Source of the DNA: a virus | Lineage: Duplodnaviria; Caudoviricetes | DNA length: 64,000 bases | Strand: one strand, 5' to 3' | IMG/VR virus record: IMGVR_UViG_3300044991_002130 | Span: 10,406-74,405 of that record | In this document: piece by piece, positions 2,019 through 41,580 of the stretch | Numbering within the stretch: position 1 is the stretch's first letter | How the letters are laid out: each line of letters starts with the position of its first letter | The notes under the pieces: generated by a model | Told to the model about the DNA's origin: nothing | The model's database searches: none | What the model saw: only the letters and a program-made list of their open reading frames with translations | Position numbers and translations under genes: made by a program

Positions 2019-2420
2019 ATGTATTCAGCAGTATTATTAGACGAAAAATCTCAACTTGCTCTATCAGCATGGGCAGATAAAAATATCAAAATCAATGGCG
2101 TTAGATTACCCATTGTTGTTCGTGACAATGGTTGGAAAATGATTTGTCATCATATGACAATAAAGTTTGGCGGCACTCCCGAGTTTGTTAAACAATATCT
2201 TGGCACAGAACAAAACCTTGAAATCACTCATTATGGAATGAGTGACAAGGCTGTTGCTGTGCGTGTTGTTGGTTTTCATAGTGAAAACAAAATTCCTCAT
2301 ATCACTGTGGCAGTAAATGTTAAAAATGGTGGAAAGCCAGTTGACAGCAACAAAATCACTGAATGGCTTACAGTTGAAAAAGGACCAACGCTAAAAGGCG
2401 TCGTGACAGAACTACAATGA
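2019..2420 (+). CDS. 2H phosphoesterase (2',3'-cyclic phosphodiesterase-like)
   Basis: Two HxT motifs (HHMTI, PHITVA) plus KPVDSN. Confidence 0.75.
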   Translation: MYSAVLLDEKSQLALSAWADKNIKINGVRLPIVVRDNGWKMICHHMTIKFGGTPEFVKQYLGTEQNLEITHYGMSDKAVAVRVVGFHSENKIPHITVAVNVKNGGKPVDSNKITEWLTVEKGPTLKGVVTELQ

Positions 2421-2635
2421 AAATCAACGACGCTGTATTCTTCACAGACAACACAACTGTTCGTCTGGAAACTGACAAGGGCAACTTTTATCTCACCGAT
2501 AAAGGCAAGTTTTATAACATGCATCCGATAAACGTGATGGCAGATGAAATCAAGGTAGCAGAATTGAAAGAAATCAAATCTGTTGCCAAAAAGGGTGGAT
2601 ATAAAAACGACAAAGAAGTGAAGAAATGGTTATGA
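2417..2635 (+). CDS. Hypothetical protein
   Basis: 72 aa ORF with ATGA overlap. Confidence 0.6.
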   Translation: MKINDAVFFTDNTTVRLETDKGNFYLTDKGKFYNMHPINVMADEIKVAELKEIKSVAKKGGYKNDKEVKKWL

Positions 2636-3534
2636 ATAAAGACAATGTAAGTGGACTAATTATAGGTTCTCTTGTAGGCGATGCACTTGGAGTACCGGTA
2701 GAATTTCGTCCACGGGAAGTTTTGCGTCAAAATCCCGTCGTTGACATGCGTTCGTTTGGCACACATTTTCAACCAAAAGGAACATGGTCGGATGATGGTT
2801 CATTACTTCTTATAACATTGGAGACGCTTATAAACAAGGAACCACCGGTCGAAGCATTGAAAAAGTTCGTGAAATGGGTCAACGAGGGATATTGGACTGC
2901 ACACGGCGACGCATTTGATATTGGAAACACCACAGCAGACGCAATAGCGGGCTTTATGCAGCACGGTAAGCCTTCCGCCCCCCATACGCCACAAAGCAAC
3001 GGAAATGGCGCATTAATGAGGATTGCGCCACTTGCTCTGTTCGTGGATTCAAAGCATACAAAACCGGAAGAGTTATATAAACTCTGTGGAGAATGGTCTG
3101 CACTTACCCATGGACATGAAATATCGGCATTTGCCTGCACTTATTATACAATGTTGATTTCTCTTATTCTAAGTGGATGTTCATTGTCGGAGGCTCACTT
3201 GTATACTTGCTCATTGACTGAAAAATTCGCACCAAAAGAATTTGATAGATTATTGAGTTCGATAAAGCACATCTCAGATTACAACCTAGAAGATATAAAG
3301 TCTGATGGGTATTGTCTACACACACTGGAAGCGGCAGTTTGGGCAGCATTCAATAGTCCATCTTACAAAGACAGTGTGTTGATGGCAGTAAATATGGGAG
3401 AAGACACGGACACGACTGCGAGCGTGTGTGGAGGAATCTTGGGGGCATATTATGGAAAATCTGCAATACCTAAAGAATGGGTACAATCTCTGGCAAGACT
3501 AAATGATATTGAAAACTTAATCGCAAAAATATGA
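2626..3534 (+). CDS. ADP-ribosylglycohydrolase (DraG/ARH family)
   Basis: GDALG, WSDD, SNGNGALMR, THGH and GEDTDT motifs. Confidence 0.95.
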   Translation: MVMNKDNVSGLIIGSLVGDALGVPVEFRPREVLRQNPVVDMRSFGTHFQPKGTWSDDGSLLLITLETLINKEPPVEALKKFVKWVNEGYWTAHGDAFDIGNTTADAIAGFMQHGKPSAPHTPQSNGNGALMRIAPLALFVDSKHTKPEELYKLCGEWSALTHGHEISAFACTYYTMLISLILSGCSLSEAHLYTCSLTEKFAPKEFDRLLSSIKHISDYNLEDIKSDGYCLHTLEAAVWAAFNSPSYKDSVLMAVNMGEDTDTTASVCGGILGAYYGKSAIPKEWVQSLARLNDIENLIAKI

Positions 3535-3830
3535 AATCTAAACTTGACCAAATGTACAATGAGATTGAAACCGGATGGAATGTCGGTCTAAAAAAGCTTA
3601 GAGAAGGAAGCACCCCCTTGACCGAAAGCGCACGAAAGTCGATAGAAGAAACAAGAAATAACGTTGTGGAAGACATGCGCGATGCAAACATATATAGACA
3701 CATTGGAGTTCCGGGTGCAGCGGAATCTTCGGACCCCGGCGATGATATTGAACATTGGCAAGAAATATATGACTGGTGTTCTCGAATATTATCTATAATA
3801 GACGAAATGTTAGCACATAAAACTATATGA
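3531..3830 (+). CDS. Hypothetical protein
   Basis: 99 aa coupled ORF. Confidence 0.55.
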   Translation: MKSKLDQMYNEIETGWNVGLKKLREGSTPLTESARKSIEETRNNVVEDMRDANIYRHIGVPGAAESSDPGDDIEHWQEIYDWCSRILSIIDEMLAHKTI

Positions 3831-4084
3831 ATCGTCGTAGATTTCTAACAACATTGTTTGGGTTGGCAGCGGCTCCTGTTATAGTAGCGAGAGTATTGTC
3901 GGCACCACCCAAGCCGACATTATTGGCTTTCAAAGGAAAGCGGTTTATGGAGACTGGATATGTATATGCTCCATACATTCCAATGCTTATTACACCGATG
4001 ATAGATATAAAACCAATGAGAAACTCACCACTCGGTAAAGTATTTTACATGAATAAGTATTATACAAAACATACAACCTTGTGA
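3827..4084 (+). CDS. Small protein with twin-arginine-like signal and major-capsid-like peptides
   Basis: MNRRRFL plus hydrophobic stretch; FKGKRFMETGYVYAPYIPM and IKPMRNSPLGKVFY resemble gp23 motifs. Confidence 0.55.
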   Translation: MNRRRFLTTLFGLAAAPVIVARVLSAPPKPTLLAFKGKRFMETGYVYAPYIPMLITPMIDIKPMRNSPLGKVFYMNKYYTKHTTL

Positions 4085-4380
4085 TTACTGTCGTAAACAA
4101 ATACAAACACACTCCAACACCAAATGATATTTATATTGGTCGCGGCTCTGCATTTGGAAATCCATATGTGATTGGCAGTGAATATACACGAGATAAAGCA
4201 GTGGATGCATATTGTACATACTTGAATGCCAAGCGGCAATATAATGCACAATTTAGACATGAACTGCAAAAGATTGCCGACAAAGCAAAGATAAGTGACA
4301 TAAACCTCGTGTGTTATTGCAAGCCACAAAGATGTCATGGAGATATTTTGAAAGAATTGTTAGAGTCGGAGTATTTATAG
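4081..4380 (+). CDS. DUF4326 family protein
   Basis: IYIGRGS.FGNPY ... LVCYCKP..CHGD. Confidence 0.85.
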   Translation: MITVVNKYKHTPTPNDIYIGRGSAFGNPYVIGSEYTRDKAVDAYCTYLNAKRQYNAQFRHELQKIADKAKISDINLVCYCKPQRCHGDILKELLESEYL

Positions 4381-6148: not shown

Positions 6149-6186
6149 ATTGACTTATTGTTATTTTGGTTCATGGTAATACAATT

Positions 6187-7212
6187 ATGAGTGAACGTAA
6201 ATTAGCATCAATCCAGAAAATAACGGAAATCCTACCAATTGACGGTGCGGATAAGATTGTGTGTGTAAAAATTCTGGGGTGGCAATGCGTGGCACTAAAG
6301 ACTGAATTCAAAGTTAATGACCTTTGTGTTTTTTTTGAAATAGATAGTGTTCTTCCCATCGCACAATGGAATGATCATTTGAGAAAAGAACCAAACAAGC
6401 AATTGCGTATAAAAACTATACGTTTGAGAGGCACATTGAGTCAAGGTCTTGCCATGCCACTTTCTATTCTTCCAGACGGACAATATGAAGTAGGTCAAGA
6501 TGTTACACAATTGGTTGGCGTAACCAAATATGAACCATTTGTTCCAGCACATCTATCTGGTGTGGCCAAAGGAAACTTTCCAGCATTTTTACACAAAACC
6601 GATGAACCTCGTTTACAATCCAGCCCTAATGTCTTACAAGAAGCCATTGACAAAAATCTTGTGCTTGTTGGCACACTCAAAATGGACGGTACAAGTTTTA
6701 CTGCGTATCGAAGAGACGCTGATTTTGGCGTGTGTTCTCGCAACTTGGATTTGACGCAAACAGAGGACAATGCTCATTGGAAGATGGCTCGCAAGATCAA
6801 ACTTGAAGAAATTCTTCGCAGTGAATCTCGCAATCTTTGTGTACAAGGTGAAATGGTTGGTCCCGGTATTCAAGCCAACCGTCTTGGATTCAAAGAAGTT
6901 GAACTGCATTTATTCAATTTGTATGACATCGACACAGGCAAGTATTTTAGTCATAACGAATTGATTGAATTTGGAAAGAAGCACAATATAAAAGTTGTTG
7001 AAACACTTAGTGTTATTCAGTTTAGTAATGATATGGCACCCAGAGATGTTAATTATCTTTTGAACATTGCCAATGAGCTAAACTATTCCAACGGCACTCC
7101 CGCAGAAGGTATTGTTTGGCGTCCAACCGTTGAAACATACAGCGAAGTTCTTAAAGGTCGCATGAGTTTCAAGACCATCAGTAACCGTTACTTGGAAAAA
7201 TACAAAGAATGA
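6187..7212 (+). CDS. RNA ligase, DRB0094/Rnl5 family
   Basis: RKLASIQ..I.PI.GAD, FFEIDS, SQGL, KTDEPR.Q, KMDGTS, QGE..GPGIQ, EGIV, SFKTIS. Confidence 0.9.
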   Translation: MSERKLASIQKITEILPIDGADKIVCVKILGWQCVALKTEFKVNDLCVFFEIDSVLPIAQWNDHLRKEPNKQLRIKTIRLRGTLSQGLAMPLSILPDGQYEVGQDVTQLVGVTKYEPFVPAHLSGVAKGNFPAFLHKTDEPRLQSSPNVLQEAIDKNLVLVGTLKMDGTSFTAYRRDADFGVCSRNLDLTQTEDNAHWKMARKIKLEEILRSESRNLCVQGEMVGPGIQANRLGFKEVELHLFNLYDIDTGKYFSHNELIEFGKKHNIKVVETLSVIQFSNDMAPRDVNYLLNIANELNYSNGTPAEGIVWRPTVETYSEVLKGRMSFKTISNRYLEKYKE

Positions 7213-8285: not shown

Positions 8286-8364
8286 GGAAGTCAAGCTATT
8301 CGGGACGGGCACCTCCCTCTTAAGGAGAACATTCGTGTGGGTTCAACTCCCACGGCTTCCACCA
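8286..8364 (+). tRNA. tRNA-Lys(CTT), atypical (A at position 8)
   Basis: Cloverleaf, loop CTCTTAA, ACCA end. Confidence 0.8.
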
Positions 8365-8425
8365 TTTTTTCAAAATAATTGATGTTATGTGAGTATATAT
8401 TATATTTATTTTTACACATCAAATT

Positions 8426-8758
8426 ATGAACGACCATAAAGATTTACTTGGAGAATTTCTGTCCGGTGGATGGATTGTAGCAATAATCGGAGCAGCGGGT
8501 ATGATAGCAAGATTGCTGACCGACGATGTAAAGATTACACTGATGCAACAAGTTAAAAGAATACTTGCCGCATCAATATGTTCTGTCATTACATGGTTTT
8601 TATTAGAAAATGTAGATTTAAGTAGTCTGACTAAAGCCGTAACATACGGAGTAGTTGGAGTAATCAGTCCAGAAATTTTAGAAGGTTTGTCGAAGTTGGG
8701 AAAGAGTTTTGCAAAAAATCCTTTCAAATTCTTCAGGCGGACAAAAAAGATTGAGTAA
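8426..8758 (+). CDS. Small multi-TM membrane protein (holin-like)
   Basis: Three hydrophobic segments and a basic C-terminus. Confidence 0.55.
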   Translation: MNDHKDLLGEFLSGGWIVAIIGAAGMIARLLTDDVKITLMQQVKRILAASICSVITWFLLENVDLSSLTKAVTYGVVGVISPEILEGLSKLGKSFAKNPFKFFRRTKKIE

Positions 8759-8762
8759 TAGT

Positions 8763-8839
8763 GCGGGGTTGATGTTTAACGGTTAGCATACGAGTTTTCC
8801 AAACTTGATGTGGGGGTTCGAATCCCCCACCCCGCTCCA
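8763..8839 (+). tRNA. tRNA-Gly(TCC)
   Basis: Cloverleaf, loop TTTCCAA, TCCA. Confidence 0.9.
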
Positions 8840-8916
8840 ATTTGTACTAGGTTTGGTGTTCCAACCATTCCGAAGATATATAGCAAACACTAAATACGCA
8901 GTACAGCAAATTTTTT

Positions 8917-9002
8917 GGCTTATTATACCGCTAAGGACGCGGTTCGCACTGTAAATGCGAAGCCCTCGGGCTGGGTTGGTTCGATACCGACATAAGCCAC
9001 CA
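8917..9002 (+). tRNA. tRNA-Tyr(GTA)
   Basis: Loop CTGTAAA, long variable arm, ACCA. Confidence 0.85.
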
Positions 9003-9009
9003 TTTTTAT

Positions 9010-9085
9010 CCGCTTATAGCTCAATTGGCAGAGCACGCTCTTTATAGGGGCATGGTTGTGGGTTCAACTCCTACTGGGCGGACCA
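9010..9085 (+). tRNA. tRNA-Ile(TAT)
   Basis: Loop TTTATAG, ACCA. Confidence 0.8.
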
Positions 9086-9096
9086 ATTTATAATAC

Positions 9097-9184
9097 GGAA
9101 AGTTGGCAGAGTGGTCTAATGCAGGACTTTGCTAAAGTCCCGATCCGAAAGGGTCCATAGGTTCGAATCCTATATTTTCCGCCA
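9097..9184 (+). tRNA. tRNA-Ser(GCT)
   Basis: Loop TTGCTAA, long variable arm, GCCA. Confidence 0.9.
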
Positions 9185-9249
9185 AATTTAGATTCTTGCA
9201 AGACGGTGTTCCTTTGAATTGCAATTCAATCGAAGTGACCGCAGCTGAA

Positions 9250-9333
9250 GTCAGTGGTGAATGATATAATGGCATTATTTCTCCCATAAAGGAGAATATC
9301 TGGGTTCGACTCCCAGTTTACCGAAAAGCTGAC
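9250..9333 (+). ncRNA. tRNA-like body inside an extended stem, no CCA
   Basis: D loop, TCTCC-CATAAA-GGAGA arm with 6-nt loop, CTGGG-TTCGACT-CCCAG T arm, acceptor extended by GTCAG/CTGAC. Confidence 0.55.
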
Positions 9334-9350
9334 ATGAGGCAAAACTTTAC

Positions 9351-9425
9351 GCCGAATAAACATAAATGGTAATGTGCTAGTCTTGTAAACTAGATAAGCG
9401 GGTTCGATTCCCGCATTTGGCTCCA
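9351..9425 (+). tRNA. tRNA-Thr(TGT)
   Basis: Loop CTTGTAA, TCCA; A8. Confidence 0.85.
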
Positions 9426-9510
9426 ATTTGTAGGTCGCAATATTCTGAATTATAATTCAGCGAAGATATTCCAATTATTGCGTTAGTGGAATTCGCCTAT
9501 AACAATTTAT

Positions 9511-9586
9511 GCCGTGTGACATAGCTGGTTGTGATGACTCCTCTGCAAAAGGATGGAGATTGGTTCGATTCCAATACGCGGCTCCA
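9511..9586 (+). tRNA. tRNA-Cys(GCA), atypical D arm
   Basis: Loop CTGCAAA, U73, CCA. Confidence 0.8.
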
Positions 9587-9594
9587 ATTTATAT

Positions 9595-9668
9595 GCGGGA
9601 TTAGTTTAGTGGTAGAATGTGACATTGCCAATGTCGATACGGGAGTTCGATTCTCCCATCCCGCACCA
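9595..9668 (+). tRNA. tRNA-Gly(GCC)
   Basis: Loop TTGCCAA, ACCA. Confidence 0.9.
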
Positions 9669-9670
9669 CT

Positions 9671-9796
9671 TTGACAGGATGGAATGGGCGTCGTATAGTT
9701 GGTAAATCAACTTGCAGTCCAACGTGAACCAACCCAGCAGCAACGAAGCGTGAGAAAAGTTGAGTTCTCATGTGAAGCTAGTAGAAGTTCTGTCAA
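9671..9796 (+). ncRNA. Unknown structured RNA
   Basis: Terminal stem TTGACAGGA/TTCTGTCAA between tRNAs. Confidence 0.45.
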
Positions 9797-9805
9797 TAAT
9801 TTTAT

Positions 9806-9883
9806 GGCCATGTGACGTAACTGGATAAACGTGTTAGTTTTAGAAACTAAATTCTGTGGGTTCGAGTCCCACCTTGGCTACCA
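9806..9883 (+). tRNA. tRNA-Leu(TAG), short variable loop
   Basis: Loop TTTAGAA, ACCA; no class II arm. Confidence 0.85.
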
Positions 9884-9968
9884 TTTTAGGTCGAAACAAT
9901 GAGTTGCATAAATTCAATGAAACGGTTGGTTAATAACCAACAGCCACTTTTCTTGGCGCGACTTTTAA

Positions 9969-10092
9969 TTTTGATAGTGTATGTGTTTTCGTCTCTAAAA
10001 TCTTACGGCACATGGAAGACGTGTAACGGGTTCAAAGTCCGACCACTTTGCATTGAGCAGAGTGAGTAAGCCAACCATATACATTATCAAAA
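9969..10092 (+). ncRNA. Unknown structured RNA
   Basis: Long terminal stem TTTTGATAGTGTATGT/ATATACATTATCAAAA; internal CGGGTTCAAAGTCCG T-loop-like hairpin. Confidence 0.55.
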
Positions 10093-10099
10093 AATTTAT

Positions 10100-10175
10100 G
10101 GGAGTTTGGTGAAGGCGGTCCTCACGTCGCACTGAAGATGCGAAGAAGTTGGTTCAATTCCAACAGCTCCCACCA
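10100..10175 (+). tRNA. tRNA-Phe(GAA)
   Basis: Loop CTGAAGA, ACCA. Confidence 0.85.
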
Positions 10176-10181
10176 TTTTAT

Positions 10182-10255
10182 TGAGATATGTTGTAGTGGT
10201 AGCAACGGAGTCTTTGAAACTCTTAGTCTTGGTTCGATTCCAAGTATCTCAGCCA
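10182..10255 (+). tRNA. tRNA-Gln(TTG), copy 1
   Basis: Loop CTTTGAA, U1-A72, GCCA. Confidence 0.9.
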
Positions 10256-10398
10256 GTTTGAGAAACCTATACCAATAGGTGTATAAGCCGAACGGCCCGA
10301 GAGGGATGGACGTGAGCTATAGCATGGATGTGTAATCGAAAGAGTATCCACCAAGACTTGTTCTTGGCGCAAAAATCCATTGTGACAACACCTCAAAC
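10256..10398 (+). ncRNA. Unknown structured RNA
   Basis: Terminal stem GTTTGAG/CTCAAAC with several internal hairpins. Confidence 0.45.
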
Positions 10399-10404
10399 AT
10401 TTAT

Positions 10405-10480
10405 CGGAGTGTGGTGACAAAGGTTGTCGATTCGTTTTGGAAACGAAATTATGCAGGTTCGAGTCCTGTCACTCCGACCA
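10405..10480 (+). tRNA. tRNA-Pro(TGG), atypical D arm
   Basis: Loop TTTGGAA, C1-G72, ACCA. Confidence 0.8.
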
Positions 10481-10487
10481 CTTTTAT

Positions 10488-10561
10488 TGAGATATGTTGT
10501 AGTGGTAGCAACGGAGTCTTTGAAACTCTTAGTCTTGGTTCGATTCCAAGTATCTCAGCCA
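10488..10561 (+). tRNA. tRNA-Gln(TTG), copy 2 (identical)
   Basis: Exact duplicate of 10182-10255. Confidence 0.9.
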
Positions 10562-10568
10562 TTTTTAT

Positions 10569-10643
10569 TGCGATATAGTGTTAAGGTAGCACAGCCCGAC
10601 TGTTAATCGGGAAGTGATGGTTCAAGTCCATCTTTCGCAGCCA
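10569..10643 (+). tRNA. tRNA-Asn(GTT)
   Basis: Loop CTGTTAA, GCCA. Confidence 0.85.
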
Positions 10644-10808
10644 TTTTATTATACAACAACTGCGGAGATAGTAATTCCAAAAAAGTTGTTACTGTATGAG
10701 TAGAAGATATCGTGAATTAATTACTATGTCACGTGAAGCGAAAAATATAGGATAATATAAAGGTGAAGCCTCATCTTGAATGGGTTAAATTCCCAAAGGC
10801 ATTTTTAT

Positions 10809-10886
10809 TCTCATCGGGCTGGCATGGTGTTAAGCACGTGACTGTTAATCACGATAAGCGTGGATCGTTACCACGGGTGGGAGCCA
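10809..10886 (+). tRNA. tRNA-Asn(GTT), atypical (T loop ATCGTTA)
   Basis: Loop CTGTTAA, GCCA. Confidence 0.75.
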
Positions 10887-10888
10887 AT

Positions 10889-11009
10889 TTAATGTAGCTG
10901 AGAACGGATGCAAGCGGTATACCGAAACGCCGAAAGGTTGACCTTGGAAACAAGCGGTATGTGTCGATACAAAAGTATCATAACAGAGTGGAACTCACAC
11001 TCTCATTAA
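10889..11009 (+). ncRNA. Unknown structured RNA
   Basis: TTAATG/CATTAA closure with GNRA-capped hairpins. Confidence 0.35.
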
Positions 11010-11020
11010 AAATTTTATAT

Positions 11021-11099
11021 GGAACTAAAGCCACAGTGGACGGGCAGCGGTCTTTTAAACCGTTAATTCGTGTGGGTTCAACTCCCACTGGTTCCACCA
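11021..11099 (+). tRNA. tRNA-Lys(TTT), atypical (A8)
   Basis: Loop CTTTTAA, ACCA; same body style as 8286. Confidence 0.8.
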
Positions 11100-11159
11100 T
11101 TTTGTTAGCTTTTTTGTACATATGAGTTATATTTATAGAAATACCACCATTATTTACAT

Positions 11160-11585
11160 ATGAAAAAAAGCGAACTTAAAGATATTATAGCCGAATGCGT
11201 TACCGAAGTCATTCAAGAACAAGGTTTACCAGAAGGTTGGGGACAAGACATGTTGAAAGGTTTGAAGAAGACCTTCACGGGCGATGGTCCAGACAGTGGA
11301 GCAGCACATTATGATAGAAATGCAAAAATGCACAATAAACGCGTGGATTACAGTAAAGCATCTATCGGAGATAAGTCTAAGATGCGGGCCGGAGCAAGAA
11401 AAACGGTAGAGGCTTCGAAACAAGAATTTGAAACTAAGTTAAAAGAAATGCTGCGCAGTGCATTCGTAGAAGCCGAATCAGTCGGAATGAAGCGCGAAGA
11501 CGTAACAAAAGCATTTCGTTCCGCAATCACGAGTATTTTTAACAAATATAAAAGACTCGAAGAGATAGCAGAAGAACAACAATAA
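11160..11585 (+). CDS. Hypothetical protein with MKKSELK leader (putative packaged head protein)
   Basis: N-terminal motif shared with 18174 and 26102; TATTTAT motif upstream. Confidence 0.7.
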   Translation: MKKSELKDIIAECVTEVIQEQGLPEGWGQDMLKGLKKTFTGDGPDSGAAHYDRNAKMHNKRVDYSKASIGDKSKMRAGARKTVEASKQEFETKLKEMLRSAFVEAESVGMKREDVTKAFRSAITSIFNKYKRLEEIAEEQQ

Positions 11586-11737
11586 TTTTTAGGTGATGTG
11601 TGAGGTTTCACTGACTCACACTTAGTCGAGAAGCTCGATAACCTTTTGGGTGTGAGGGGCGACTATCGTGTCGCCGACATCTTTGGTCCCCACCAATTTG
11701 TCGCAATGGGGCAATACCTCACACATATAATTTATAT

Positions 11738-11820
11738 AGCAGAGACAAGCCAAGGGACGCTGAGTGCGCTCATAACGCATCCGAAAGGTATGATGGATTC
11801 GATTTCCATCTCTGCTACCA
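11738..11820 (+). tRNA. tRNA-CAT (Met or Ile2), atypical, with variable hairpin
   Basis: Loop CTCATAA, CCGAAAGG variable arm, ACCA. Confidence 0.7.
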
Positions 11821-11909
11821 ATTTCGTATTCGTGTTTCGGACCAAAAGAATATAGAGTGACATACGACTCTTTCAATTGGAAAAATCAGAGCACCCAATT
11901 TATTTTTAT

Positions 11910-11985
11910 CAGTGTGTGGTGCAAGAGGTTGGCGATTCCGCTTGGAACGGAAATTATGTAGGTTCGAGTCCTATCACACTGACCA
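11910..11985 (+). tRNA. tRNA-Pro(TGG), atypical D arm
   Basis: Loop CTTGGAA, ACCA; paralog of 10405. Confidence 0.8.
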
Positions 11986-12050
11986 ATTTTTAACATACAC
12001 AGTAGTCCTCTTGATTTATATCAATGTCAATAATGGCTGTGTGAAACTTT

Positions 12051-12127
12051 GGAGTGGGAGCTTATGAAGCACAAGCAATAGATTGTCAATCTATAGAAAG
12101 TCGGTGCAAATCCGATGCACTCCGCCA
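12051..12127 (+). tRNA. tRNA-Asp(GTC), atypical
   Basis: Loop TTGTCAA, T loop TGCAAAT, no GG in D loop, GCCA. Confidence 0.7.
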
Positions 12128-12161
12128 ATTTTACGATTTGAATATGGACGCATATTCATTC

Positions 12162-12240: not shown

Positions 12241-12254
12241 TATTTAAATTTTAT

Positions 12255-31132: not shown

Positions 31133-31133
31133 T

Positions 31134-31583
31134 ATGAATGAAAAGTATTTGGAGAACGACAACCACTGGACGGCTGCACCTTACCCACTACGACCATGTA
31201 CAGAAGAAGTTGAGATATACAAAAATAATTTGTTGTCTGGAAAAACTTTGTTGCTTGGATGCACGGCACCGTTACTTGACATTTGCGACGAGGCAATAGA
31301 TTTAGTTGTAAGAGTTCAGAATCCAAAAATACGACAGGGTGATTGGTATAATATATCTGGATTTTATGACAACATTATTACCGATGGAGCAATCAATCTT
31401 ACTGGCCCATCGCTAATAGATGCCGTAAAACCACATTGCAAACAGCTTATAAGCAGAGTATTTTCTAGGAAATTTTCGTATATGAAATATGCAAAATTAT
31501 TTTATACCGAGTTTCCCAATGCAACAAAAATAGCAGAAATAAACGAATCATGTCCGATTTTCATCTGGAAGTTTACAAGTTAG
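31134..31583 (+). CDS. Hypothetical, methyltransferase-like
   Basis: LLLGCT...D...GDW...YD.II.DG. Confidence 0.55.
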   Translation: MNEKYLENDNHWTAAPYPLRPCTEEVEIYKNNLLSGKTLLLGCTAPLLDICDEAIDLVVRVQNPKIRQGDWYNISGFYDNIITDGAINLTGPSLIDAVKPHCKQLISRVFSRKFSYMKYAKLFYTEFPNATKIAEINESCPIFIWKFTS

Positions 31584-32569
31584 TAAAAGCATTGGAAGAA
31601 AACCAATACAAAGAGCGTGATATATCAAAGTTGATACCAGCGTGCAATATTCTCACTAGAGAAAATTTACAGAAGATTCCAATAGATAAGTCACAGCCAT
31701 TTTGTTCTACTAGCGGCGCAACTGGCCAACCCGTGTTTGTTCAAAAATTTACGGCCCAACATGTTTGGTATTGGGCGACAAACATGCGAGAATTGATTTG
31801 GAGAAAATGGGACACATCATTGACATTGGCAGTCATCAATGCACCGGTTTCAGAAGAAAAAATAACACCTTGGCCAACGAATCCATATTTGTTTCCGAAT
31901 AAGGTTGGAAAATGCCATATGCATCCAACAAGAGGAGATTTGCAAGGATGGCTGAACAGAGTGCAGCCAGATTATTTGCATACATATCCATCAATCGCCG
32001 CCACACTTGATACATCTAAACTAAAAGATGTAAAAACAACAAGTGAAAGAGGTGGTAGTAATTATAGTTCGGAAGAAGTGGGTACGATTGGCCTAGAATG
32101 TCCAGATAATCCAGATGTATATCATATTATGGAGAACATTGTTTTAGAAATCGTAGATGACAATGATATTGTGTTGACCGATCTTACGCACCCATATATC
32201 AAGAGATACAGGATAGGAGACAAAGGAGAGTTTTCTACATGCAGTTGTGGAAGAAAACTGCAAACTATCAACCGAAATGTGCTTGGTAGAGTTCGCAATA
32301 TGGTGAAATATCCAGATGGAACAACCGCATGGCCATTGTTTGCTAGCAATACAATAAGAAATGCATGTGATACAATAAAAAGATTTCAATGCATACAAGA
32401 ATCATACTCGGATATCACAGTAAAGATTCAAGGAACTGTACCAGCTGATAAAATTGAAGATGTAAAAAATTTGATATTGAAGAGACTCAATTATCCGTTC
32501 AATCTAAAGATACAGATTGTTGATAGTTTCCCAGAAGGAAAATTTGAAGAGTTTGTCTGTAAGATATAA
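31550..32569 (+). CDS. Phenylacetate-CoA ligase (PaaK)-like adenylate-forming enzyme, compact
   Basis: STSGATGQP, YSSEEVG, RYRIGD, CSCGR, LGR. Confidence 0.8.
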   Translation: MSDFHLEVYKLVKALEENQYKERDISKLIPACNILTRENLQKIPIDKSQPFCSTSGATGQPVFVQKFTAQHVWYWATNMRELIWRKWDTSLTLAVINAPVSEEKITPWPTNPYLFPNKVGKCHMHPTRGDLQGWLNRVQPDYLHTYPSIAATLDTSKLKDVKTTSERGGSNYSSEEVGTIGLECPDNPDVYHIMENIVLEIVDDNDIVLTDLTHPYIKRYRIGDKGEFSTCSCGRKLQTINRNVLGRVRNMVKYPDGTTAWPLFASNTIRNACDTIKRFQCIQESYSDITVKIQGTVPADKIEDVKNLILKRLNYPFNLKIQIVDSFPEGKFEEFVCKI

Positions 32570-32575
32570 TTTTAT

Positions 32576-32655
32576 GCTACCGTATGCCGTCTGCCTTCTA
32601 AGCAGAAGAAAGCTAATTGGAACACATGTAGGTTCGAGTCCTATCGGTAGCACCA
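32576..32655 (+). tRNA. tRNA-Arg(TCT) lacking the D arm, with D-loop-like sequence in the variable region
   Basis: GCTACCG/CGGTAGC acceptor, 7-nt linker, TCTGC-CTTCTAA-GCAGA, AGCTAATTGGA in variable region, T arm, ACCA. Confidence 0.7.
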
Positions 32656-33221: not shown

Positions 33222-33935
33222 TTACACCAAAAACGGTAGATAAATTTTTCTCAGGGTTTCGTTGGCCAACGCCAAATCAAATTCATATGTAAATTTTCTA
33301 CTATTATACGATAGCTTAACAGCCGCCTCGGAAGCATCAAACATTTCGTTTAATTTTTCTTTTGTGTACTTCTCTGGCTCGGTTTTTATAGAAAACAAAT
33401 GTGCCCAAGTCTTCTCATCGGCTAATTTTAGATTTACTGGAAAATATCCATGTTGAAAAAGAGTTTTTCCACAAAACGCAAGTCTTAATAGTTGAGTAGC
33501 GTTTTTTGGGGAAAATCCATATTTATCCAATTGTGCTTTACGCTTACTACCAAGTTGACCAGTTCTCTCACCATTTGCCAATCTTCGTTCACCTTGCATA
33601 TAACCAAGTAAGCATCGAAACATCTTGTCTGTGTCAACAAACTTAAACTTGTTGGATCGTATTTCTTCAAATGCATCACTTGTTTGAAGAAAGTCTTCAG
33701 AAAAGAGTATTTCAATCGCACCTGTGTTACCATTGCGCAGAAGTTCAAAAAACTTGCGAAGTTCGTAATAAACTATGTCGTCTGTTTCTTGTTTCTGTAT
33801 ATGATCGAGCTTTTCCAATCCAAGTATCTTGGACGGCTCTGTGTTTATGAATACACCTCTGTAATCAAGATCGGACTCGGGAGTATTAAGTCCATATGCT
33901 GTGCTGCCCCCCAAAGCTTTTACTAACATTTTCAT
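33222..33935 (-). CDS. Pol-beta superfamily nucleotidyltransferase (YcgL/Nuc-transf-like)
   Basis: GSTAYGLNTPESDLDYRGVF, YELRKF. Confidence 0.85.
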   Translation of the reverse strand: MKMLVKALGGSTAYGLNTPESDLDYRGVFINTEPSKILGLEKLDHIQKQETDDIVYYELRKFFELLRNGNTGAIEILFSEDFLQTSDAFEEIRSNKFKFVDTDKMFRCLLGYMQGERRLANGERTGQLGSKRKAQLDKYGFSPKNATQLLRLAFCGKTLFQHGYFPVNLKLADEKTWAHLFSIKTEPEKYTKEKLNEMFDASEAAVKLSYNSRKFTYEFDLALANETLRKIYLPFLV

Positions 33936-33973
33936 ATTATAAATACTGAAATTATTTTTTAAGAAGTCAAGTA

Positions 33974-34483
33974 TCAATTAGCATCCAATCGATATATAAT
34001 TACATCACTGGGATAGTCGGTAAAAGCAACTTCTATTAGACGTTCGACTATTCGGAAATCTCCACCCCCTCTGTCGGAACCCATTTTATAAGGAAATCCA
34101 ACAGATGGAGCCGGAAGATCCATGCCATTTTCTGTCAACTCATTTGCCATACCTTCCAATGCAGAATATAAAGCATCATAATTGGTTTGTCTTGTGCCTT
34201 TTCCAAATAAATTTTGACCATACAAGTTATAGATAAGAGCAATTTGATTGTCGTGTTTATTTGCACCGCTAGTAAATGGAATATAACCAACAGAAAAATT
34301 TCCTAGAGTATTTGTCTTTGATAACGTGGCTGCACAGTCTGCTTTATATGCGTCTGGATACATTTCACGAATAGTACGAGCAATACCACTGCCAAATGTA
34401 TTTTGACAGTTTGCTTGATGGCCAATGACTTGTACATCTTTTGCGAAAAGTAGATTGCCATCTTTATAAATAAGAGATTTCAT
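33974..34483 (-). CDS. Macro domain ADP-ribose hydrolase
   Basis: GNLL...HQANCQ..FGSGIA, NLYGQ, PYKMGSDRGGG. Confidence 0.9.
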   Translation of the reverse strand: MKSLIYKDGNLLFAKDVQVIGHQANCQNTFGSGIARTIREMYPDAYKADCAATLSKTNTLGNFSVGYIPFTSGANKHDNQIALIYNLYGQNLFGKGTRQTNYDALYSALEGMANELTENGMDLPAPSVGFPYKMGSDRGGGDFRIVERLIEVAFTDYPSDVIIYRLDAN

Positions 34484-34563
34484 ATTTTTAAATAATGCTA
34501 AAATTTCATAGAATGTCAACATTTTTTATCGCGTTTTGTTCAATTTTATAATACTTATTGTAT

Positions 34564-35708: not shown

Positions 35709-35738
35709 AAAAAACCCCGCTATTATGGCGGGGTTTTT
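35709..35738. terminator. Bidirectional terminator
   Basis: AAAAAACCCCGC-loop-GCGGGGTTTTT between convergent genes. Confidence 0.85.
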
Positions 35739-35741: not shown

Positions 35742-36389
35742 TTATACATCCGGACTATGATGATCCGGGGCAACTGCGGTTCTATTCTTTAATTCTCGAT
35801 GAACTTCTTCCCATTCAACTGGCCGACGTTTCCATTCCCAGCCAACGTCCAACCGTTTCAGGCCAACATCCTCTTTAAGATTTCTGTGACAGTGGCCGTG
35901 AATATTGTATCCACCCTTCGACATATGATTCCACGAAGCAATTGGATAGTGCGTTAACACAACCGGAACTTTATCAATGAAGATTTCAGCATAATGGCCG
36001 AGAAATGTAAACGTGGAGTTTGGATAATTCAATGGATACACTTCAATGTCGGCATGAAACTGCATTTCATCCAATGTGGCGTCATACAACTGTTGCATGC
36101 CAGCGTTATGATTGCCCCAAATAAAATATTGATGCTTACACGGCAAACGAATCAACCGCTTTGCATAGTCCAATGAATTTGCGCCAGCACCAATCACTGC
36201 ATCGCCAAGATTGAATACAATATCATTTAATCCAATATGGTCGCTCAACATTTGATATGTGTGAGCATATGCTTCATTGACATTTTGATAATTGCGTGGA
36301 CCAAGAATAAATGGCTTGTCGTGACCTAAATGTAGGTCAGATATAAACCAAATCTTTTGGTCGGTTGATTTTAGACTAATCTTTTTCAT
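35742..36389 (-). CDS. Calcineurin-like metallophosphoesterase
   Basis: SDLHLGH, LGD, GNH, THYP, HGHCH. Confidence 0.9.
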   Translation of the reverse strand: MKKISLKSTDQKIWFISDLHLGHDKPFILGPRNYQNVNEAYAHTYQMLSDHIGLNDIVFNLGDAVIGAGANSLDYAKRLIRLPCKHQYFIWGNHNAGMQQLYDATLDEMQFHADIEVYPLNYPNSTFTFLGHYAEIFIDKVPVVLTHYPIASWNHMSKGGYNIHGHCHRNLKEDVGLKRLDVGWEWKRRPVEWEEVHRELKNRTAVAPDHHSPDV

Positions 36390-36756
36390 GAAAGAATTTG
36401 GGACGATTTATTTTAAAATTTTCGAGATATCCAATGATATTTTCTTTACCAATTGGATTTAAGCTATGAACTTGATATTCTGGCAACGGTAGTTCATATT
36501 CCATGCAATATTCAACCAGCCATTTGGCACATTCATATCCGGTCTTTTCTTTATATTGATTATACCCCGCACCACCAGTATAATGTTCGTCGGCAAGATC
36601 ATGATCAAAGCTCACAAACAATGGTGAGCCATGTTTCATAATATATTTTACAAAATCATCATAGCTTCGCACTATAATCCAAGGACCAAGTGGCATTTGC
36701 ATCCACCTAACATCTTTTGGCAACCGAATATCATCAAGAAATAATTTGTAGCTCAT
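36376..36756 (-). CDS. Cyclic-phosphate processing receiver domain protein
   Basis: LFLDDIR.P, SFDHDL, KTGYE.AKW, VHS.NP.G. Confidence 0.8.
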   Translation of the reverse strand: MSYKLFLDDIRLPKDVRWMQMPLGPWIIVRSYDDFVKYIMKHGSPLFVSFDHDLADEHYTGGAGYNQYKEKTGYECAKWLVEYCMEYELPLPEYQVHSLNPIGKENIIGYLENFKINRPKFFHEKD

Positions 36757-36920: not shown

Positions 36921-37398
36921 TGGGAATGGGAGTTTGAGAAATCAAAGCGTGTACGAGTTGTCGTTCATATTGATACAAATCTTTGAGATTGCGCTGTAGA
37001 ATATCATGAATTTTAAAGAATCCAACTGGTCCGAGGTATTTGAATTCACGATCATATCCATATGAAGTCCATAGATCGCCTCGCCAAAAGTCAGGACCGC
37101 CGCAGTTGTCCCAATACCAACCAAAGTGAAGATACGGATGAGCGGCCTTGTCATCAGTAACAATTCCAGTTGGTTTGCGAAAGTTTAGCACATAACCATC
37201 TTCTGCAACATTGCCCCACTCGGTAAAGGTCCAGCCATTCTTGTTCAAGAACGATGCAACTTTATCGTTGGCTTTTACTCTGGCGATGGCATCTTTTCTA
37301 GTCATGTCATATCCCAACATGCTGGTAAACCGAGTCACGTTGTTTGATTCTGCCCAAGTGGGCAATTTAAATGTTTTCATTGTTTTCATTGTTTTCAT
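36907..37398 (-). CDS. Hypothetical protein
   Basis: 163 aa ORF. Confidence 0.6.
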   Translation of the reverse strand: MKTMKTMKTFKLPTWAESNNVTRFTSMLGYDMTRKDAIARVKANDKVASFLNKNGWTFTEWGNVAEDGYVLNFRKPTGIVTDDKAAHPYLHFGWYWDNCGGPDFWRGDLWTSYGYDREFKYLGPVGFFKIHDILQRNLKDLYQYERQLVHALISQTPIPNGNR

Positions 37399-37673
37399 TG
37401 CAATCTTCCTCCACCAACCAACACATTACGAAGTGTGCTAGATTGTCCTTTGCGACTGGTCTTGGCTTTGAAGTCGGCAAATGTGTCTGGCAGCATAACT
37501 TGCAAACTTCCAGCCGTCTTGTGTTCAAAGACCATAGCACCCATATATCTAGATTGAGATACGCCACGCTTTGCACAACTTAGGCAAACACGCAGGCCAA
37601 GTTCTGCACGCGCAGACTCAATAGCCTCGGAGCAACAAGAGCAAGGATTTTTATGTAGAGTAAAACCATTCAT
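37395..37673 (-). CDS. DksA/TraR-type C4 zinc-finger protein
   Basis: CSCCSEAIESARAELGLRVCLSCA. Confidence 0.55.
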   Translation of the reverse strand: MNGFTLHKNPCSCCSEAIESARAELGLRVCLSCAKRGVSQSRYMGAMVFEHKTAGSLQVMLPDTFADFKAKTSRKGQSSTLRNVLVGGGRLQ

Positions 37674-37807
37674 GCGATTAATGATGCAGTAAGTATATAA
37701 AAAGTCAACCAGAATCTTAATTTTTTGAAAAAAGTTTTGAATAAAAAAGTTGACAATCGAAGAGTTTGTGATACTTATATTCGTAGTTCTTTGACACAAC
37801 AATTTAA

Positions 37808-37992: not shown

Positions 37993-38384
37993 GGGCTCGT
38001 TTTTAGATTCTACTCTATAGAATGAGTACAAGCCGCAAGCACAGAGTCTAATGTCTCTGTATAATACCCGTTGGAAAACATAAATGCTAAGAGAAATCTT
38101 GCAAAGAAGAGCTTCCTCACCGTTCGCAAGAACGCTGAAGTTGAGCTTCTAGCCGCAGCCTAATAAAATAGGCTGTCCGTTGTCCTTGTGACACAGATAA
38201 CAAGTCAACAACGTTCATCATCTGGCCGTTTGTGTGAGATAGAAGATGGTAGCACAAATCAAATACTAAACTTCAACTTCAATATGGTGCTCTACCAAAT
38301 ATTGATGTATTATAAGAGATAAGCTTGTATATGTTTGTAAGCTTTTTATATAGCACCCGGGTGCAACTCCCGGCGAGTCCACCA
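37993..38384 (+). ncRNA. ssrA: tmRNA, tag (A)AKRNLAKKSFLTVRKNAEVELLAAA*
   Basis: GGGCTCG/CGAGTCC acceptor with G3-U70, T arm, ACCA; tag ORF 38086-38163 after ATAAAT. Confidence 0.92.
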
Positions 38385-38465: not shown

Positions 38466-39182
38466 ATGACAAAGAAAATCCTATTAATGATTACGGCATT
38501 AATCGCCGCTGTTACGCTGAGTGCAGCCCCAATCGGGTTGACTGCAAATGCAACATACTATACCAAGTATCTAGATAATGGCTTGGTTGCATTTGAAGAT
38601 GTTGCCGTTGCCGGTGTTACGCTAGAAGCATACAATTTTGTTGCTGGCGTCAACACGTTCAACACCATCAAAGACACAACAACAGGTAAATACACAGCAA
38701 GTGCTGGACTGTTCAAACGTGTTGACCTGTCGCTTGGATACAAGTTTACATCTCCATTGGCAAATTTGACTTTGGGCGGTACATATAAAACTTATAGCAA
38801 GAGTGTATCAAATATTGCAAGTAACACTGAGCCATTTGCGCTATTGAATGGTTCTCTGTTCGGCACCCGTGCAACTTGGGATGCACGCTATCGCGCAGAC
38901 CTAAAGAATCATACCAATAACACAGAAGCAAATCTACGTCTACCATTTGGTTTCCAACATGTAAAGCTTGTTCCAGCAATTGGATATGGCTTTAATGATC
39001 TCGGTGCCGATACGATTGTAAAGTATAGATTTAGCAAGCAATATGCTGTTGTTGGCGCAGGTATTGGCTATTATGCAAAGAATGCCACACTGTCTGTTGA
39101 CTTTACTCAACGCCGCGACGGTTTGTTAACCGCAGGAACAACTGTAAATAGTGTTTCGGGTGGGATTGCAGTAAAGTTCTAA
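38466..39182 (+). CDS. Outer-membrane beta-barrel protein
   Basis: Signal peptide, alternating beta strands, C-terminal Phe. Confidence 0.7.
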   Translation: MTKKILLMITALIAAVTLSAAPIGLTANATYYTKYLDNGLVAFEDVAVAGVTLEAYNFVAGVNTFNTIKDTTTGKYTASAGLFKRVDLSLGYKFTSPLANLTLGGTYKTYSKSVSNIASNTEPFALLNGSLFGTRATWDARYRADLKNHTNNTEANLRLPFGFQHVKLVPAIGYGFNDLGADTIVKYRFSKQYAVVGAGIGYYAKNATLSVDFTQRRDGLLTAGTTVNSVSGGIAVKF

Positions 39183-40218: not shown

Positions 40219-40224
40219 TCGATC

Positions 40225-40431
40225 ATGAAAAATAAACCATTGTCAAAAAAACAACGCAAAGATTTGATTTCTGCTTGGGCAGGAATGAATTGTTTATGTG
40301 CATACCTAAAAGATTACAAGACGAAGCCGGAAAATTTTGGTGACAAGTTTGACCCTCACGCTTATGCCAGAGACATATATAAACTACTTGATTCGGTAAT
40401 AAACAATGTTGATGATTCGGATTTATATTGA
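40225..40431 (+). CDS. Hypothetical protein
   Basis: 68 aa ORF. Confidence 0.5.
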   Translation: MKNKPLSKKQRKDLISAWAGMNCLCAYLKDYKTKPENFGDKFDPHAYARDIYKLLDSVINNVDDSDLY

Positions 40432-40464
40432 CCTTTTATAAAAAGTTGTCATAGTATATTCATT

Positions 40465-41580
40465 ATGAAAATTGATCTACAGTCTATTGATCCTGAGTCA
40501 TTCATGGTTCATCAACATTTTATTGGAGAACATGAATGCTATTTGGTCCAGCCAGTTCATATTGGTACTTCTTGGAACAAGGACAACCTCATTTATCGTT
40601 CGTCTCTTTGGGACAAAGAAGGCAATCCTGTTTCGCTTTCGTTCAAAAAGTTCTTCAATTACGACGAAAAGCCTGATATTTTTCCTGCTCCTTCTAATCT
40701 AACTGATGCGAAGTTGATGGAAAAGTTGGACGGCTCCACTTTGATTTTTTCTCGCTACAAGGGCCAGACTGTTATTCGCACACGCGGAACTGTTGATGCT
40801 CGCAAGCAAGCAAATGGACATGAGATTGACTATTTGTGCAAAAAGTACAAGAAGTTCATTGCATATCTTGAAATGCTAGAAACTAGCAATGAGTCTTTTG
40901 TACTGGAATGGTTGAGTCCAACCAATCGCATTGTATTGAACTATGGCGACGAACCTGACATGGTTTTGACTGCTGTAATCAATCACAATGATTATTCCTT
41001 GATGTGCCAATCTCAATTGGACTATTTTGCATCTGATATTAAGCTGCGTCGTCCCCGCACATTCTCTTACAACTCTGTTGAAGAAATGAAGTCGGCGGTT
41101 GAAGTATTGCGTGATCAAGAAGGTTTGTGTGTATATTATGGTAACGAACAACAAATTCGTAAAGTAAAAGCCGCACAATATCTTTTTTTACATCGTGCAA
41201 AGTCCGAAATTTCTAGTATAGAAAAAGTCATTGATGTGTATATTGATTGGTTTATGGATCGGTACAATCTTTCTCACGAACCAACTGGTTATGTAGAATT
41301 CTTTGAGTATCTTACTGAAAAGTTTGATTTTGAAATTGCTACAATGGCAACTGGACATGCTTCGCGTATCTGTGATGCTATGAAAGAAGTATCAAAGATC
41401 ATGAATGCATTGTTTGAGTTTGCATCTGCTCGTATGTATATTGCTCGTAATATTGCTGCCAAAGAAATCTTACAAGCATATGGCAGCACAGGCAGAAGCG
41501 CAATTATATTCAAGATGTTGGACCGCAAGACCATTGGAGCAGATGATTATAAAAAGTTGTTATACCAAGTATTAAAATGA
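40465..41580 (+). CDS. T4 Rnl1-like RNA ligase
   Basis: KKFFNY.E, EKLDGS, EWLSP.NRIVL.Y, EG, KVK...Y. Confidence 0.85.
   Translation: MKIDLQSIDPESFMVHQHFIGEHECYLVQPVHIGTSWNKDNLIYRSSLWDKEGNPVSLSFKKFFNYDEKPDIFPAPSNLTDAKLMEKLDGSTLIFSRYKGQTVIRTRGTVDARKQANGHEIDYLCKKYKKFIAYLEMLETSNESFVLEWLSPTNRIVLNYGDEPDMVLTAVINHNDYSLMCQSQLDYFASDIKLRRPRTFSYNSVEEMKSAVEVLRDQEGLCVYYGNEQQIRKVKAAQYLFLHRAKSEISSIEKVIDVYIDWFMDRYNLSHEPTGYVEFFEYLTEKFDFEIATMATGHASRICDAMKEVSKIMNALFEFASARMYIARNIAAKEILQAYGSTGRSAIIFKMLDRKTIGADDYKKLLYQVLK

Follow-up and report, generated by a model that had tools for sequence, protein, structure and literature searches.

The window analysed here is a 64,000-nucleotide (nt) stretch of viral DNA (Duplodnaviria; Caudoviricetes; IMG/VR record IMGVR_UViG_3300044991_002130), corresponding to bases 10406-74405 of a 74.4-kb contig that CheckV places at ~34% of a genome; window coordinates are used unless stated otherwise. 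It contains a 44-kb insertion, hereafter the island, which separates two clamp-loader genes that in phage T4 are adjacent. The island carries an array of transfer RNA (tRNA) genes, an RNase P RNA, a transfer-messenger RNA (tmRNA), a set of RNA-repair enzymes and several ADP-ribose enzymes (Table 1). An earlier note, made from the sequence alone, had read these parts as one integrated translation-rescue system gated by an attenuator. Megablast and blastn searches of the island against a phage collection gave no DNA-level match. Using the clamp-loader protein, the nearest named records were an uncultured 484-kb phage (49.7% identity), Microcystis phage Mel-JY01 and Agrobacterium phage Atu_ph07. 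Scans of viral contigs uncovered a close clade that includes G001, a genome of 297,258 bp scored as 100% complete by CheckV, and because of this clade member the window is taken to come from a jumbo phage. The stretch 27000-36900 is contained in 20 DNA sequencing runs labelled lake-water metagenome. To compare gene content, the island proteins were mapped onto 62 related loci, many of which are short, so that a miss does not amount to an absence. The candidate small clamp-loader gene at the right border was kept in 51 of them.

Table 1. Features of the island and its borders, in order of position (window coordinates except where the contig is named).
Feature	Position	Strand	Evidence and remarks
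Pnkp-type 5'-kinase, just outside the window	contig 7675-8121		AAA_33 85 bits; PDB 4gp6/4jst E 1.4e-16; Pnkp1 (4xrp)
Clamp-loader large subunit (gp44-like)	1061..2014	+	phrog_168 267 bits; Pfam AAA + DNA_pol3_delta2; left border of island
Compact 2H phosphoesterase (CNPase / tRNA-ligase-CPD type)	2019..2420	+	Pfam tRNA_lig_CPD 21 bits, below cutoff 23
ADP-ribosylglycohydrolase (ARH/ARG)	2626..3534	+	Pfam 230.5 bits; first of four genes inserted relative to G001
DUF4326 protein	4081..4380	+	Pfam 72.7 bits; last gene of the ARH insertion
DraRnl/Rnl5-type RNA ligase	6166..7212	+	TIGR02306 156.3 bits, cutoff 151.15; PHA02142 OB fold + RNA_ligase
tRNA array	8286..32652	+	46 genes, all 20 amino acids, protein genes interspersed
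ADP-ribosyltransferase (ART-PolyVal), the phage's own	15436..16998	-	Pfam 47.4 bits; also matches a ParB C-terminal PHROG; not in the earlier note
NUDIX hydrolase	18860..19249	+	Pfam 36 bits; 84% identity in G001
Endonuclease	21780..22538		Nuclease (Pfam/PHROGs)
SNase	23432..23863		Nuclease (Pfam/PHROGs)
Divergent class-A-like RNase P RNA, P3 expansion ~85 nt	~27027..27399	+	nhmmer profile, P4/P2/P1 pairing; embedded in tRNA array
APS-kinase-like P-loop kinase	27773..28276	+	Pfam APS_kinase 55.6 bits; PDB APS kinases E 1.4e-8
RlaP nucleotidyltransferase	33222..33977	-	Pfam PF10127 61.1 bits, cutoff 23; GGS...DLD motif
Macro domain protein	33974..34522	-	Pfam 23.8 bits, cutoff 22; phrog_335 133.8 bits
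Bidirectional intrinsic terminator, likeliest 'attenuator' site	35710..35738	.	13-bp stem + T run; fold z-score -2.97
Calcineurin-like metallophosphoesterase	35742..36389	-	phrog_547 'phosphoesterase' 116.9 bits; motifs DLH, GD, GNHN, GHCH by eye
cREC (cyclic-phosphate-processing receiver)	36376..36756	-	Pfam PF20274 78.2 bits, cutoff 27
Small C4 zinc-finger protein	37395..37802	-	CSCC-x15-CLSC motif (CxxC-x15-CxxC); atlas lead zf-dskA_traR 0.89
tmRNA	37993..38384	+	Rfam RF00023 77.8 bits, gathering score 47
Gene right after tmRNA	38466..39182	+	Conserved; language-model features of TorF-type beta-barrel porins (0.96); no Pfam match
Rnl1-type RNA ligase	40465..41580	+	Pfam RNA_lig_T4_1 52.4 bits, cutoff 28.3; KLDG at residue 87
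Candidate clamp-loader small subunit	45983..46459	+	Phage_clamp_A 20 bits, below cutoff 27; right border of island

When the domains proposed in the earlier note were compared with hidden Markov model libraries (Pfam, PHROGs and NCBIfam) most of them were confirmed, though not a DksA/TraR-like finger discussed below. Both RNA ligases scored above their family cutoffs. The Rnl5-type enzyme has an N-terminal OB fold and a C-terminal nucleotidyltransferase domain with KMDG at residue 172, while the Rnl1-type enzyme falls below the NCBIfam cutoff for a T4 RnlA equivalog (58.5 vs 242.25 bits) and is therefore a family member, not a shown equivalog. The proposed 2H phosphoesterase stands despite its sub-cutoff Pfam score, as its two HxT motifs (HMTI at residue 45 and HITV at residue 94) are invariant in 21/21 homologs, and an AlphaFold2 (AF2) model with a predicted local distance difference test score (pLDDT) of 95.2 had CNPase catalytic domains as its top Foldseek matches (probability 1.00, TMq 0.64-0.72). 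Only the fold search was informative here; single-sequence and profile comparisons with the PDB gave no meaningful match.

The pairing of a putative metallophosphoesterase with a cyclic-phosphate receiver was likewise recovered. The two genes overlap by 14 nt, cREC homologs occur in 140 phage records, and acidic residues of the cREC were recognized by eye (DD at 8-9, DHD at 51-53); its neighbours are the phosphoesterase and the macro domain gene, with no kinase among them. For the phosphoesterase there was no Pfam match at E<=0.01 and no PDB sequence match, and its assignment comes from the PHROG match together with the motifs read by eye. What had been called a Pol-beta nucleotidyltransferase could be specified as RlaP. 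Finally, the kinase step that was missing among the parts listed in the earlier note is supplied by a Pnkp-type 5'-kinase encoded just outside the window, matching PDB chains that we take to be a polynucleotide kinase domain (4gp6/4jst).

The repair genes proved to be linked to each other across relatives. In the 62 related loci we counted the Rnl1-type ligase in 58, the phosphoesterase and cREC in 32 each, the macro domain in 28 and RlaP in 17. The conserved block comprises macro, phosphoesterase, cREC, zinc finger, tmRNA, an uncharacterised gene, UvdE, Rnl1 and HNH, and continues with the candidate small clamp-loader subunit, a dNMP kinase and a PD-(D/E)XK nuclease. In one locus (L210) RlaP, macro, phosphoesterase and cREC are contiguous on one strand within 2.3 kb. 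Among the loci listed, macro directly adjoins the phosphoesterase in 8/25, and in the window and many relatives one or two opposite-strand genes are inserted at the operon junctions. We read the cREC-phosphoesterase-macro-RlaP order as that of an ancestral four-gene operon. The island of G001, situated between the same clamp-loader genes, has kept 2H, Rnl5, 30 tRNAs, tmRNA, the operon genes and Rnl1. A distant relative, G003, has a phosphoesterase, an Rnl1-type ligase, a Thg1-like enzyme, an Rnl5-type ligase and RlaP packed into ~8 kb, RlaP being ~0.95 kb downstream of Rnl5 with three small open reading frames (ORFs) between them, and no tRNA was found in the 40 kb examined. Linkage among the repair genes is therefore genuine, and the other modules are separate from them.

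Some observations were made on the side. The G003 cluster (L262:10438-19658 and L263:40-7793) also contains NAMPT, LAGLIDADG and GIY-YIG endonucleases and a ClpX-like ATPase, and its Thg1-like enzyme is of the type that repairs tRNA 5' ends. In another relative (G002:C1:76421-78928; L255, L257) the match to the Rnl5-type ligase is split in two, with ~1.4 kb between the pieces and one in-frame TAG in the first; an intron, an inserted homing endonuclease or breakage of the gene may be the cause.

The estimate of about 47 tRNAs for all 20 amino acids in the earlier note was a fair one. ARAGORN called 44 tRNAs on the plus strand between 8286 and 30002, with every one of the 20 amino acids covered, and Rfam at its gathering score added two more (12051-12124 and 32576-32652) to give 46; a relaxed ARAGORN run gave 50. 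The tmRNA was also borne out by its Rfam score, well over the gathering score, and was not called by ARAGORN on the window. By eye it has the G3-U70 acceptor pair of the alanine type and a tag frame that ends in LLAAA-stop-stop. Homologs at the same position were present in 38 of the 62 related loci, and ARAGORN predicted tags in 27/62; these start with AKRNLAK and end with LAAA, LVAA or VAVA, and the G001 island carries such a tag too. The conserved gene right after the tmRNA was considered as an SmpB-like tmRNA partner and rejected, given its TorF-type porin features and the lack of a Pfam match.

Within the array, the tRNA at 15272-15348 (+) has the anticodon UCA, which reads UGA; it is labelled SeC by ARAGORN and scores 44 bits with the Rfam tRNA model. 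To us it looks like an opal suppressor. The window genes read normally under code 11 and suggest no recoding, the late genes not being on this contig. Two tRNA-Ile genes (9010-9085 and 26534-26608) have the anticodon UAU, an uncommon way of reading AUA in bacteria.

A complete tRNA set next to repair genes could serve the phage's own programme, by supplying codons and by replacing host tRNAs that are lost when the phage degrades host RNA and DNA. The island encodes nucleases (the SNase and the endonuclease of Table 1), the tRNA set is complete for the 20 amino acids, and codon compensation is the classical view of phage tRNAs (PMC10264068). Yet ligases, cyclic-phosphate enzymes and RlaP mend endonuclease damage and are not tools of supply, and the same gene sets recur beside conflict systems in published surveys (PMC7824862, PMC9503650). 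We regard this explanation as unlikely when taken by itself; it and a counter-defence role are not mutually exclusive.

Embedded in the tRNA array is the least expected element of the island, an RNase P RNA that belongs to a phage family. Rfam gave no RF00010 match on the window at the gathering score, and the sole match at the locus in a permissive scan was RNaseP_arch at 27230-27394, with 22.3 bits against a gathering score of 84. Family loci were collected by motif scans of viral contigs, where the filter demanded the motif of conserved region I (CR-I), the separate sequence ACAGAA and at least 7/8 pairs in helix P4; 20 loci passed, and among them were 15 distinct core sequences. When 12 relatives, without the window, were made into an nhmmer profile, it had a single match in the window (27130-27395, E 1.9e-26). 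The P4 pseudoknot between CR-I and CR-V showed 8/8 pairs plus a bulged U in the window as well as in 20/20 filtered loci, and its two variable pairs displayed seven compensating combinations. Helix P2 was fully paired (6/6) in 12 of the 15 sequences in 11 distinct combinations; the three others (L006, L007 and L068) miss under the anchoring used. The P1 duplex in the window is predicted at -15.2 kcal/mol and sets the span of the RNA given in Table 1. Taken together, the profile and the P4, P2 and P1 pairing bear out the RNase P RNA of the earlier note, at a score below the Rfam gathering threshold.

Rfam was also run on 18 of the family loci. Eleven gave significant but sub-threshold matches that extend from end to end, either to RNaseP_bact_a (30-45 bits against a gathering score of 100, E down to ~1e-11) or to RNaseP_arch (23-36 bits), and all 11 adjoin tRNAs; the remaining 7/18 had no RNase P match at E<=0.1. 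CR-I and ACAGAA are spaced 217 nt apart in the window (relatives, 140-280 nt), and the Rfam alignments delete much of the S-domain. The 5' strand of P2 lies 110 nt upstream of CR-I in the window compared with 16-33 nt in the relatives, and because of this difference P3 is considered to be expanded by ~85 nt; the expansion folds into a 104-nt hairpin. Thus the phage RNA resembles bacterial class A RNase P RNA (RF00010) in having P1, P2, P4 with the bulged U and the CR-I, CR-IV and CR-V motifs, and in the end-to-end alignment of its relatives with the model, whereas it differs in its low or missing model score, in an S-domain that appears reduced or divergent, in the expanded P3 of the window and in being phage-encoded inside a tRNA array. 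A literature search for a phage-encoded RNase P RNA, covering titles and the openings of abstracts, turned up no such paper.

The close relative G001 has no RNase P RNA. No profile match was obtained in its 60-kb island stretch or in the 62 related loci, and the exact CR-I motif occurs nowhere in G001; its sole exact match was the window's contig, with one-mismatch matches elsewhere at the control rate. A genome-level RF00010 search is insensitive, missing even the window's own contig, and the CR-I motif was used for the relatives instead. The gap between tRNA-Ile and tRNA-Met, where the RNA resides in the window, is 92 nt in G001 compared with 803 nt in the window, and the G001 array is also smaller by ~16 tRNAs (30 vs 46). 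From this one might picture a nearly self-contained, portable kit for the tRNA life cycle, with tRNA genes, a ribozyme for 5' maturation, end repair and ribosome rescue. The RNase P RNA would have been gained together with the ~16 tRNAs, in response to a host RNase P that is limiting for the array or hit by a defence, and ARH and the macro protein would strip ADP-ribose from tRNA, RNase P RNA and tmRNA, structured RNAs of the kind attacked by RNA-directed ADP-ribosyltransferase toxins. We consider this picture quite improbable.

Besides the RNA itself, the ~710-nt insertion relative to G001 includes 418 nt without an ORF (26609-27026), between tRNA-Ile(UAU) and the RNase P RNA. This segment has a fold z-score of -1.43 and no Rfam match, and a 24-nt word from it had no exact match in viral contigs.

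The two ADP-ribose erasers of the earlier note, ARH and the macro protein, were upheld as domains, ARH at 230.5 bits and the macro domain narrowly. The macro protein has weak PDB matches to YmdB and to ADP-ribose-1''-phosphate phosphatase (E 0.002-0.004), and its best NCBIfam match is DarG, at 25 bits against a cutoff of 250. Relative to G001, gene order points to ARH, two small genes and DUF4326 (2626-4380) as an insertion between homologs of h2417 and h4485, which may be a mobile ADP-ribose-processing cassette. The phage's own ADP-ribosyltransferase (ART) is part of a three-gene block on the minus strand (13771-17550; a 452-aa protein, ART-PolyVal and a 181-aa protein) located inside the tRNA array and absent from the G001 island. 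Neither ARH nor ART was found in any of the five relatives searched (G001-G005). A peptide-pattern scan of viral contigs gave no ARH relatives, and DUF4326 and SNase were not found in the 60-kb island stretch of G001.

These enzymes need not act on the translation apparatus at all. ARH, macro, DUF4326 and NUDIX may instead belong to a NAD+/ADP-ribose conflict network, in which ARH pairs with the phage ART or reverses macromolecular ADP-ribosylation, including that of DNA, while soluble derivatives of ADP-ribose or by-products of repair are cleared by macro, DUF4326 and NUDIX. The window has both ARH and ART, whereas the five relatives have neither, and ARH arrives in a cassette with DUF4326. 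Iyer et al. 2022 (PMC9503650) proposed that phage macro domains prefer soluble ADP-ribose derivatives and that ARG domains, found in ~5% of jumbo phages, prefer macromolecular adducts, with DUF4326 as a predicted domain for processing ADP-ribose phosphates; the DarG and phosphatase matches of the macro protein point in the same direction. On the other hand, the macro gene sits in the cREC-phosphoesterase-RlaP operon and is thereby tied to RNA-end chemistry, the co-occurrence of ARH and ART amounts to one genome set against one complete relative, and ADP-ribosyltransferase toxins that modify structured RNAs and tRNA exist (PMC12340436, PMC13617354). On balance we hold the conflict network to be a serious contender, at slightly less than even odds.

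Whether all these parts work as one layered translation-rescue system, with expression gated by an attenuator, is a different matter. It is true that all parts are within one 44-kb island between clamp-loader genes, and that the shared parts occupy the same interval in G001. However, the parts are on both strands, each behind its own terminators, and among relatives they come and go independently of one another: G001 lacks ARH, ART, the RNase P RNA and ~16 of the tRNAs, and the G003 repair cluster has no tRNA within 40 kb. Co-occurrence across related phages, to which the earlier note had pointed, thus held for the repair operon, tmRNA and Rnl1, which are syntenic in dozens of related viral contigs, and failed in G001 for ARH, ART, the RNase P RNA and part of the tRNA array. 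The note gave no coordinates for its attenuator, and the sole leader-like Rfam matches are weak and fall on bidirectional terminators between convergent genes. A Trp_leader match (35645-35741, 26.5 bits vs 41) overlies the terminator listed in Table 1, and an L20_leader match (33112-33198) has a terminator hairpin at 33159-33186. The rRNA/tRNA mimics that were to complete the system had no Rfam match at E<=1 in the window. We consider a single gated system very improbable. As far as sequence comparison can tell, the modules are co-located, not co-regulated, and the island is shared by distinct modules, among them the genes for tRNAs, tmRNA and RNase P RNA and the ADP-ribose cassettes.

Our preferred explanation, to which we assign a probability of about 0.7, is that the locus is an accessory island of a ~300-kb freshwater jumbo phage, with at least four separately inherited modules and a mechanism for tRNA supply and repair. 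The first module would consist of the translation RNAs, i.e. the 46-gene tRNA array with its embedded divergent RNase P RNA and the tmRNA, and the second of an RNA end-healing and sealing kit (2H, the cREC-phosphoesterase-macro-RlaP operon, the Rnl1-type and Rnl5-type ligases and the Pnkp-type 5'-kinase). An ADP-ribose-processing cassette running from ARH to DUF4326 would be the third module, and the cassette of the phage's own ADP-ribosyltransferase the fourth. What the parts are, and that the linkage of the repair genes is conserved, are observations, on which we build the following sequence of events. In response to the cutting or depletion of tRNAs during infection, the phage would supply its own tRNAs, and its ribozyme would help to trim their 5' leaders. 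At damaged ends, 2H or cREC would open 2',3'-cyclic phosphates, after which the phosphoesterase would remove the phosphate, the kinase would phosphorylate 5'-OH ends and RlaP would restore lost nucleotides. Resealing would be done by Rnl1 in loops and by Rnl5 at nicks in duplex, and the tmRNA would free stalled ribosomes. Every substrate in this scheme, the order of its steps and its role in counter-defence are what we infer.

Several observations weigh against this explanation. SmpB, RnpA and KptA/Tpt1 are encoded neither in the contig nor in G001 by searches whose controls match (for KptA/Tpt1, PF01885, a component of the KptA/Tpt1-2H-macro pathway of NAD+-dependent 2'-phosphate removal, 0/2 records compared with 3/14 genomes in the control search); therefore the tmRNA and the ribozyme would use host proteins. 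The 2'-phosphate left by a CNPase-type 2H would have no phage-encoded remover, which leaves a host enzyme or some other route to deal with it. The island's internal kinase resembles APS kinase and not polynucleotide kinase, and the macro domain is barely above its Pfam cutoff. As the contig is only about a third of a genome, a gene missing from it may still be present elsewhere in the phage. No RNA run was listed as containing 27000-36900, and no host could be assigned, so that no tRNA-targeting defence can be named.

A modular supply-and-repair island of this kind is closely related to systems described for other jumbo phages. Iyer et al. 2021 (PMC7824862) described how these phages combine the provision of tRNAs with RNA ligases, 2H, cREC, polynucleotide kinases, phosphoesterases, RlaP and macro domains, and read this gene set as a response to attacks on the translation apparatus. 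The later survey (PMC9503650) reported cREC neighbourhoods with a T4-like ligase, a kinase and a calcineurin-like phosphoesterase, and cREC in up to 18% of jumbo phages. With these systems the island has in common 2H, cREC, calcineurin-like phosphoesterase, RlaP, ATP-dependent RNA ligases, macro, ARG, NUDIX, DUF4326 and many tRNAs, and the proposed role is identical. The text of the 2021 paper contains neither 'tmRNA' nor 'RNase P', whereas the window has all parts in one island; the comparison is with the text, and the figures or supplements of the two papers may already show a cREC-phosphoesterase-macro-RlaP neighbourhood. According to a 2025 preprint, RlaP extends the damaged 3' ends of RNA by one or two nucleotides and restores tRNA aminoacylation (bioRxiv 10.64898/2025.12.29.696909). 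Phage tRNAs evade tRNA-targeting defences (PMC10264068, PMC11555353), and the array resembles those cases in being a large set able to replace cleaved host tRNAs; the published examples are T5-like and other coliphages. The layered counter-defence proposed in the earlier note thus stood in part: its domain calls were largely right and its replace, mature, repair and rescue reading is already in print as a prediction for jumbo phages, and what did not stand was the integration and the attenuator gating that would have made it a new regulated system.

The repair kit can also be compared with characterized pathways. In T4 infection, Pnkp and Rnl1 repair tRNA-Lys cut by PrrC, a pathway also cited in PMC7824862. 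The island shares the heal-and-seal logic with T4, having a 5'-kinase, a 3'-end phosphoesterase and an Rnl1-family ligase with KxDG, although here two genes encode the kinase and the phosphatase, the phosphatase belongs to the calcineurin-like and not the HAD type, the kinase resembles the bacterial Pnkp type and the ligase is far below the RnlA equivalog cutoff (58.5 vs 242 bits). With the bacterial Pnkp-type enzymes (4gp6, 4xrp) it has in common a homologous kinase domain (E 1.4e-16) and the use of a metallophosphoesterase for 3'-end healing. In bacterial Pnkp the kinase, metallophosphoesterase and ligase-like domains are joined, while in the phage they are split into separate genes, and no Hen1 methyltransferase turned up in Pfam scans.

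The window offers an unusually complete natural case for testing the published predictions for jumbo phages: that cREC and the calcineurin-like phosphoesterase heal cyclic-phosphate ends, that repair is completed by RlaP and two types of ligase, and further that tRNA supply and repair jointly counter tRNA-directed immunity. For three of the modules, the RNase P RNA, the ARH cassette and the ART cassette, G001 provides a natural 'minus' genotype.

Additional genes of the island and its surroundings were noted. NUDIX, DUF4326, SNase, UvdE and the APS-kinase-like kinase were not among the parts listed in the earlier note. The proposed DksA/TraR-like finger could not be confirmed, since the small protein showed the CxxC-x15-CxxC motif and the atlas lead of Table 1 and had no Pfam or NCBIfam match in comparisons that included PF01258; it is possibly TraR/DksA-like. 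The APS-kinase-like kinase forms a conserved pair with a cyclic-nucleotide-binding (CRP-like) protein (27773-28989, +), with 62% and 42% identity in G001. Genes for glycosyltransferases, methyltransferases (FkbM-type and others) and an acetyltransferase form two long runs on either side of the replication genes (49198-63185 and L001:2296-7644), and their products may modify surface polysaccharide or DNA.

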